The notes beneath the pieces were generated by a model. It made no database searches. It worked only from the letters and a program-made list of their open reading frames with translations, and was not told the origin of the DNA. From a virus (lineage: Duplodnaviria > Heunggongvirae > Uroviricota > Caudoviricetes), in IMG/VR virus record IMGVR_UViG_2531839374_000013, positions 1 through 7,549 of that record: DNA of 7,549 bases, one strand, 5' to 3'. This document shows, piece after piece, positions 2,468-2,720 of this stretch. A program made the position numbers and the translations under genes. Numbering within the stretch: position 1 is the stretch's first letter; each line of letters starts with the position of its first letter.

Positions 2468-2543
2468 AAAAAGAACAAATGGTAGTGTCCGCTATTGCCA
2501 GTACACCTCAGTCTTTGATAAACTGATTTATCTTCGGATAGTT

Positions 2544-2720
2544 TTACCAGATAATCCCTCGCTTACTGTCTGGCTTCCCTAAAGGAGATACTCGTTTGAA
2601 GTGGAAGCCTTCCACCCAACAGTTCTGGCGGTATGCTTCAATTTGTCTGGCACCCAGACCAGTGCGAAGCATCAGGCCGTATTCAACCATCCACTCTTCA
2701 TTAAAGATTACTTGTGCCAT
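2544..2720 (-). CDS. xis: Xis-like excisionase / small DNA-binding protein, C-terminally truncated by a premature TAA (probable pseudogene)
   Basis: 58-aa ORF ([15 protein letters not shown]...RGIIW) with GAGGTGA Shine-Dalgarno before the ATG at 2720. Immediately upstream of int on the same strand. The same frame continues past the TAA as NYPKINQFIKD to the IS600 insertion point. Confidence 0.55.

Follow-up and report, generated by a model that had tools for sequence, protein, structure and literature searches.

In Escherichia coli K-12, the excisionase of the Rac prophage is XisR (YdaQ; UniProt XISR_ECOLI), a member of the Pfam family DUF1233 whose gene lies next to intR and ttcA. Deletion of xisR lowers Rac excision 9.4- to 13.6-fold in this strain without abolishing it, overexpression of XisR raises excision 9.7-fold, and the protein binds attR (Liu et al. 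2015, PMC4632033). A structure is available for a homolog, the putative excisionase of Klebsiella pneumoniae (PDB 2KVV; 70 aa plus tag), which was solved by NMR in the frame of structural genomics; it matches the family profile with an E-value of 9e-41, and the title of the entry gives no function. Lambda Xis (72 aa) resembles XisR in being small, in being encoded just upstream of int, in adopting a winged-helix type fold and in having a C-terminal segment beyond the wing, but a sequence relationship between the two proteins is undetectable, and they are alike only in function and topology. The C-terminal tail of lambda Xis recruits Int, and its truncations abolish excision. As for whole prophages, grounded or cryptic prophages and IS-driven pseudogenes have been reviewed for Shigella, in which excision functions are lost by point mutations and insertion sequences (ISs), IS-mediated deletions occur and a few cargo genes are kept (PMC6379469).

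We describe here an xisR gene found in a stretch of viral DNA of 7,549 nucleotides (positions 1 to 7,549 of the IMG/VR record IMGVR_UViG_2531839374_000013; hereafter the window). It is the same gene as in K-12, at the same position by intR and ttcA, but it differs from the K-12 gene by a stop in place of Tyr59, an IS600 between codons 70 and 71, a product of 58 instead of 71 aa and a distance to intR of 1.27 kb instead of 1 nt. Both the gene and its state are of an already known kind, that is, a pseudogene associated with ISs, located within a grounded prophage of the IS-rich Shigella, and we see no difference in kind from the prophages reviewed for this genus. Our overall reading, which we hold to be very likely, is that xisR is dead by the stop at Tyr59 and cut off from intR by IS600, and that excision is strongly reduced, which makes the prophage a grounded remnant.

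The xisR Reading Frame and Its Ancestral State

The gene lies on the minus strand, with its ATG at 2720–2718. A putative GAGGTG ribosome-binding site is located 6 nt upstream of this codon, and the upstream region (2721–2802) also contains one putative sigma-70-like match (2802–2774), both recognized by consensus only. The part of the open reading frame (ORF) that is still open (MAQVIF...RGIIW; codons 1–58, 2547–2720) is 100% identical in amino acid sequence to residues 1–58 of E. coli XisR. It ends with Trp58 (TGG, 2549–2547), which is directly followed by TAA (2546–2544) in place of the Tyr59 codon TAC. Beyond this stop, an untranslated remnant of the gene (2511–2543, minus strand) corresponds to codons 60–70 (NYPKINQFIKD); the last of them, GAC (2511–2513), is one copy of the IS600 target-site duplication. 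The displaced end of the gene is found on the other side of the IS (1238–1243, minus strand), where the frame reads Ser71 (TCA, 1243–1241) and the native stop TGA (1240–1238), followed by a single base (1237) and the ATG of intR (1236–1234). The annotated xisR ends in the same way in E. coli APEC O1 and in phage Rac-SA53. The initial annotation of this DNA, made from the sequence alone, had proposed both the premature stop followed by NYPKINQFIKD up to the IS600 target site and a frame that, across the insertion, ends at a TGA one base before int; both were recovered on re-derivation of the region by script, and all its coordinates were right.

Removal of positions 1247–2513, which had been suggested as a check, regenerates an intact xisR–intR junction of 320 bp, in which xisR is co-oriented with intR and directly upstream of it (1-nt spacing), whereas at present IS600 lies in between. 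Because this reconstructed junction is identical at 319 of 320 positions (99.7%) to the xisR–intR junction of APEC O1, the layout cannot be due to chance. The sole mismatch is window position 2544, which is a T on the plus strand and a G in the relatives: the ancestral codon 59 is TAC (Tyr), and a C-to-A change on the coding strand gives TAA. Matches to the reconstructed junction were obtained in 1839 complete E. coli genomes (1828 at 80% query coverage or more), and every E. coli match listed is annotated as xisR, "excisionase XisR", together with intR. It also matches five phage records, among them Rac-SA53, in which the gene is named ydaQ. In both APEC O1 and Rac-SA53, the native coding sequence is 216 nt long including the stop, encodes 71 aa, and is separated from intR by a single base. 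The prediction of a Tyr-to-stop mutation in a native protein of roughly 71 aa is therefore borne out to the residue, since the native protein has exactly 71 aa and codon 59 is TAC in E. coli.

Apart from the stop, the reconstructed protein is E. coli XisR, and its 71 aa match the Pfam family DUF1233 ("putative excisionase"; PF06806) with 74.2 bits (E-value 6e−21; cut-off 22). The 58 aa that are actually encoded still pass the family threshold (51.4 bits, E-value 8e−14), but the present ORF, with its stop at codon 59, has neither the length nor the C-terminal motif of DUF1233 proteins, both of which are found in the ancestral sequence. A Pfam scan allowing E-values up to 0.1 gave DUF1233 only, without any match to the profile of lambda Xis (Exc), and NCBIfam contained no model matching XisR. 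Because of the stop at codon 59 and the missing motif, the ORF is, as judged from its sequence, an xisR (ydaQ) pseudogene of the DUF1233 excisionase family.

Conservation and Structure of the Missing C-Terminus

Close full-length homologs (59–100% identity), which come from E. coli, Klebsiella, Enterobacter, Atlantibacter and Pseudescherichia, are all 70–72 aa long, although one of them is extended by 8 residues at its N-terminus, and the motif W-Y-N-Y-P-x-I-N is present in nearly all. An exhaustive profile search led to only 59 representative clusters. In the alignment of 39 full-length members, with identities down to 23%, Gly38 and Tyr59 are the only invariant columns. The initial annotation had expected a Tyr at position 59 and a length near 71 aa in homologs, and had considered that its reading would fall if homologs natively ended at Trp58 or did not align past it. 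The Tyr is invariant in 39 of 39 sequences and the lengths of the close homologs agree with the expected one; moreover, every homolog aligns past position 58, and because all 39 continue beyond position 59, a native end at Trp58 is excluded.

An AlphaFold model built from an alignment that included distant homologs (pLDDT 83) superseded an earlier model from a shallow alignment, which was unusable (pLDDT 49). The predicted topology comprises a short strand, two helices, strand β2 (residues 41–44), a wing loop, strand β3 (56–60) and a C-terminal helix (61–70). The model superposes on PDB 2KVV with a TM-score of 0.80 over 70 columns; the latter protein is 71% identical to the modeled sequence and has the same winged-helix fold, but, unlike the window allele, it is full length and has both the Tyr and the C-terminal helix. 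Other excisionase folds, namely those of GIsul2 (8C3T), RdfS (8DGL) and P2 Cox (4LHF), match the model weakly (E-values of 0.4 or worse). According to the model, the stop at codon 59 takes away the last 13 of 71 residues, which comprise half of the wing strand β3 and the whole C-terminal helix.

IS600 between xisR and intR

The element inserted between the two genes (1247–2510, plus strand) is a complete IS600, a member of the IS3 family. It shows all the features by which IS600 is recognized: a length of about 1264 bp (exactly 1264 bp here), TGAGG-type inverted repeats, which are imperfect (TGAGGTAGCC.../TGAGGTGTAC...), a 3-bp target-site duplication (GTC, 1244–1246 and 2511–2513), and orfA (1311–1613, 100 aa) and orfB (1649–2467, 272 aa) in 0/−1 frames with an A7 slippery run (1562–1568). 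Over its full 1264 bp, it is 99.8% identical to copies annotated as "IS3-like element IS600 family transposase" on Shigella boydii plasmids. Transcription of IS600 runs antisense to that of xisR and leads away from intR, and no outward-facing promoter-like site was found at its end next to int by a consensus scan, which is weak evidence.

The 3′ end of xis had been described as split by IS600. This is correct, the insertion being located between codons 70 and 71 with a duplication of GAC (Asp70), but can be refined: because the end of the IS supplies a TGA straight after GAC, IS600 alone would remove Ser71 only. Its chief effect is the separation of xisR from intR, which goes from 1 nt to 1.27 kb; of the native sequence before the int start, no more than 10 nt are left in place. 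The integrase gene itself (1–1236, minus strand; 411 codons, with the stop at 1–3) is an intact ORF that encodes the Rac tyrosine integrase, with the Pfam domains Arm-DNA-bind_2 and Phage_integrase. The protein is identical to IntR of APEC O1 at 407 of 411 positions, the substitutions being N163S, M322V, G324E and V403I.

Distribution and Age of the Two Lesions

Twelve loci were examined, two of which had been fetched with the 58-aa Xis (L003 and L004) and ten with the exact IntR of the window (L021–L030; L025 is the same record as L004). The left end of IS600 is at the same junction upstream of int in all 12. TAA and the IS600 junction occur together in nine of the 12 (L003, L004 and seven of the ten loci fetched with IntR), that is, wherever the xis 3′ end has been kept, and eight independent assemblies, several complete genomes among them, share this very TAA. 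Five loci of the Shigella boydii Sb227 type (L023, L024, L026, L027, and L029) have an extra 10-bp deletion (ACAAGTAATC) right after ATGGC, which shifts the frame at codon 3 and leads gene callers to report a 48-aa product starting from Met11. No xis sequence was found in four loci: three have lost the gene, and the upstream DNA of L030 extends for just 134 bp from int. Further IS elements have broken int as well in L003. In the NCBI naming, the proteins identical to the 58-aa product and to IntR are Shigella proteins. Because the TAA and IS600 pair is common to all related loci examined that keep the xis 3′ end, including those with differing patterns of neighboring ISs, it must be old; as far as these sequences tell, it is common within a Shigella lineage and was followed by further decay, which is the signature of a pseudogene.

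Searches for the IS600/xis junction in a wider sampling gave no further instance. Among 5426 complete E. coli genomes, no record covered 80% or more of the query, and two partial matches (H53 and H54) turned out to be IS600 inside another excisionase gene, in a dicB-type prophage. None was detected either, with TAC or TAA allowed at codon 59, in a genome-contig collection in which Shigella is probably not represented as a separate species. An allele combining IS600 with an intact Tyr was looked for by means of its predicted 70-aa product (P0064), and the genes recovered, which were from E. coli and lacked IS600, either had their stop at codon 71 or were truncated by contig ends. Recoding or read-through of the TAA was considered as well and is discarded, as we saw no sign of either and sister lineages carry further frameshifts.

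The Surrounding Prophage Remnant

The window is 100% identical to positions 79–7627 of L004 (contig AMGB01000034.1), in which int is followed by ttcA (ATP_bind_3) and dbpA, where Rac integrates. The 26-bp att core of Rac was found in ttcA with four mismatches, and no second att core in the loci searched. The genes next to xisR are of the Rac early-left type, with DUF1187/ydaC (2820–3008, minus strand; E-value 1e−36) and its antisense RalA small RNA. The locus is the xisR–intR module of a Rac-type lambdoid prophage inserted at ttcA in a Shigella chromosome of an S. boydii-type lineage, and what is left of this prophage is a small IS-scarred remnant.

The RalA antitoxin RNA is full length (2824–3002, plus strand; Rfam RF02694, 207 bits). 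The toxin gene ralR is absent, the adjacent module in this Rac variant being an AAA-ATPase gene, and RalA looks like an orphan antitoxin. Of the AAA-family ATPase gene, only a remnant persists (3023–3420, minus strand), which is frameshifted by a 1-nt deletion in a homopolymer T-run (about 3217–3221) and cut by IS911. The latter is complete (1250 bp, 3421–4670), its flanks (GAA and CCC) do not match, and it joins the ATPase fragment straight to queH. In APEC O1 and CFSAN029787, about 10 kb of prophage genes are found at this place, and the genes missing from the window include those for recombination, immunity, and replication, which points to an IS911-associated deletion. The queH gene (4745–5431, plus strand; Pfam E-value 2e−65), encoding an epoxyqueuosine reductase, is carried by the prophage as cargo where the nin-like region starts, and occupies the same position in the Rac-like prophage of APEC O1.

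Further along the window, a hok/sok type I toxin–antitoxin locus (5489–5828, plus strand) consists of the sok RNA (5489–5678; Rfam RF01794, 110 bits) and a Hok/Gef protein of 51 aa (5673–5828), and its leader contains a 14-bp tandem duplication (two copies of GGCTATCTGCTTCA, at about 5509–5536). A YbcO/DUF1364-type gene (7003–7200, plus strand) has lost 83 nt between 11-nt direct repeats (CGACNGGCGGG), resulting in a frameshift, and its 3′ end is cut at 7198 by a second copy of IS600. This copy (7198–7549) is itself cut off by the end of the window. Compared with the corresponding part of the first copy (1247–1600), it has an A6 run (7512–7517) instead of A7 (1562–1568), which frameshifts orfA and abolishes the programmed-frameshift site; either this copy is defective or the shorter run is a sequencing error in a homopolymer.

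Consequences for Excision

Our reading of the locus is as follows. In whichever order, a C-to-A change turned the invariant Tyr59 codon from TAC into TAA, and IS600 entered between codons 70 and 71, duplicating GAC and pushing Ser71, the stop and the abutting intR 1.27 kb off. A functional directionality factor would then no longer be produced, intR would be deprived of its native upstream sequence and of any coupling to xisR, and excision of the rest of the prophage by Int would be strongly reduced, giving a "grounded" remnant. Without Tyr59, the conserved motif and the terminal helix, XisR is probably inactive, judging from conservation across the family, and, if lambda Xis is a guide, it would at the least no longer recruit Int. 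Residual DNA binding by the 58-aa product is possible, given that the helix-turn-helix and most of the wing are kept and that its sequence still matches DUF1233. Defective excision, which the initial annotation had thought probable, is a reasonable inference by analogy with the effects of xisR loss in K-12, and because the truncated XisR is probably inactive, we expect excision to be strongly reduced.

The lesion at codon 59 could in principle be spurious, leaving a gene that is intact but for the IS. It is a single-base difference, and the same contig has homopolymer-length differences, in the second IS600 and in the T-run of the ATPase gene. However, the TAA is a substitution, not an error in homopolymer length, and because it recurs in multiple loci, complete genomes included, it is not a sequencing error; we regard an artifact as hardly conceivable. 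It is also highly unlikely, in our judgment, that xisR is a shortened rather than a dead gene, whose 58-aa protein is still made and retains a function such as binding to att or operator sites or regulation. In its favor, the start codon, putative ribosome-binding site and promoter-like match have stayed intact in this window, the product keeps the helix-turn-helix and β2 as well as a significant Pfam match, and NCBI annotates it as a protein in Shigella. Nevertheless, the invariant Tyr59, the YNYPxIN motif and the C-terminal helix, all of them part of the solved fold, are gone, and purifying selection on xisR is not apparent, given that the 10-bp deletion frameshifts five related loci and that three lack the gene.

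A different issue is whether the lesions of xis are a cause or a symptom of grounding, as they may have accumulated by passive, neutral decay in a prophage already immobilized by other events. This is quite possible, and we lean only slightly against it. The unmatched flanks of IS911 with the loss of about 10 kb of prophage genes between the ATPase fragment and queH, the ybcO-like gene both internally deleted and cut by the second IS600, and the failure to find a second att core in the loci searched are all consistent with it, as is the complete genome behind L003, in which the region beyond the second IS600 contains IS66 fragments and metal-transporter genes and not phage late genes. On the other hand, the TAA and IS600 pair is present in all the related loci examined in which the xis 3′ end is kept, and is thus old. 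Moreover, neutral decay bears on causality alone and leaves the anatomy described above as it stands. The IS911-associated deletion and the other lesions may matter for excision as much as those of xis; this deletion, or the possible absence of the far attachment site, could even be the real cause of immobility, in which case the xis lesions would be secondary.

For the reading that we prefer, in which xisR is inactivated and excision strongly reduced, the significance beyond annotation is small. The 58-aa "excisionase family protein" of Shigella genomes should be annotated as an xisR pseudogene, and the Rac remnant at ttcA in this Shigella lineage is to be regarded as non-excising. The locus is a clean example of the grounding of a Shigella prophage by a point mutation and IS insertions, and XisR 1–58 is a natural allele that may serve to probe the conserved C-terminal motif of DUF1233 excisionases.

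Disruptions of Excisionase Genes Elsewhere

The 3′ end of xisR is disrupted independently in other places (loci L005–L009, L011, and L012; proteins P0002, P0004, P0058, and P0063). In much more complete Rac prophages, the terminal repeat of an IS1 inserted at codon 59 supplies a TAA that gives an identical 58-aa product. Elsewhere, an IS1 follows codon 68, another element is located behind Ile56 and behind the stop codon, and a further insertion comes directly after Trp58; P0063 (70 aa, from S. dysenteriae) corresponds to a different insertion, after Ile56. It is tempting to view the xisR 3′ end as a recurrent target whose inactivation is selected rather than neutral, in which case selection might act to retain the cargo of Rac (the TtcA variant, hok/sok, QueH and RalA) or to avoid killing linked to excision, but we consider this unlikely. 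With assemblies of E. coli and Shigella sampled in the hundreds of thousands, several independent hits in the last 15 codons of xisR need no special explanation.

Excisionase genes have been struck repeatedly by IS600. A different, distantly related DUF1233-like excisionase gene is interrupted by this element in a dicB-type prophage of E. coli PV0838 (L033, positions 2899–4223).
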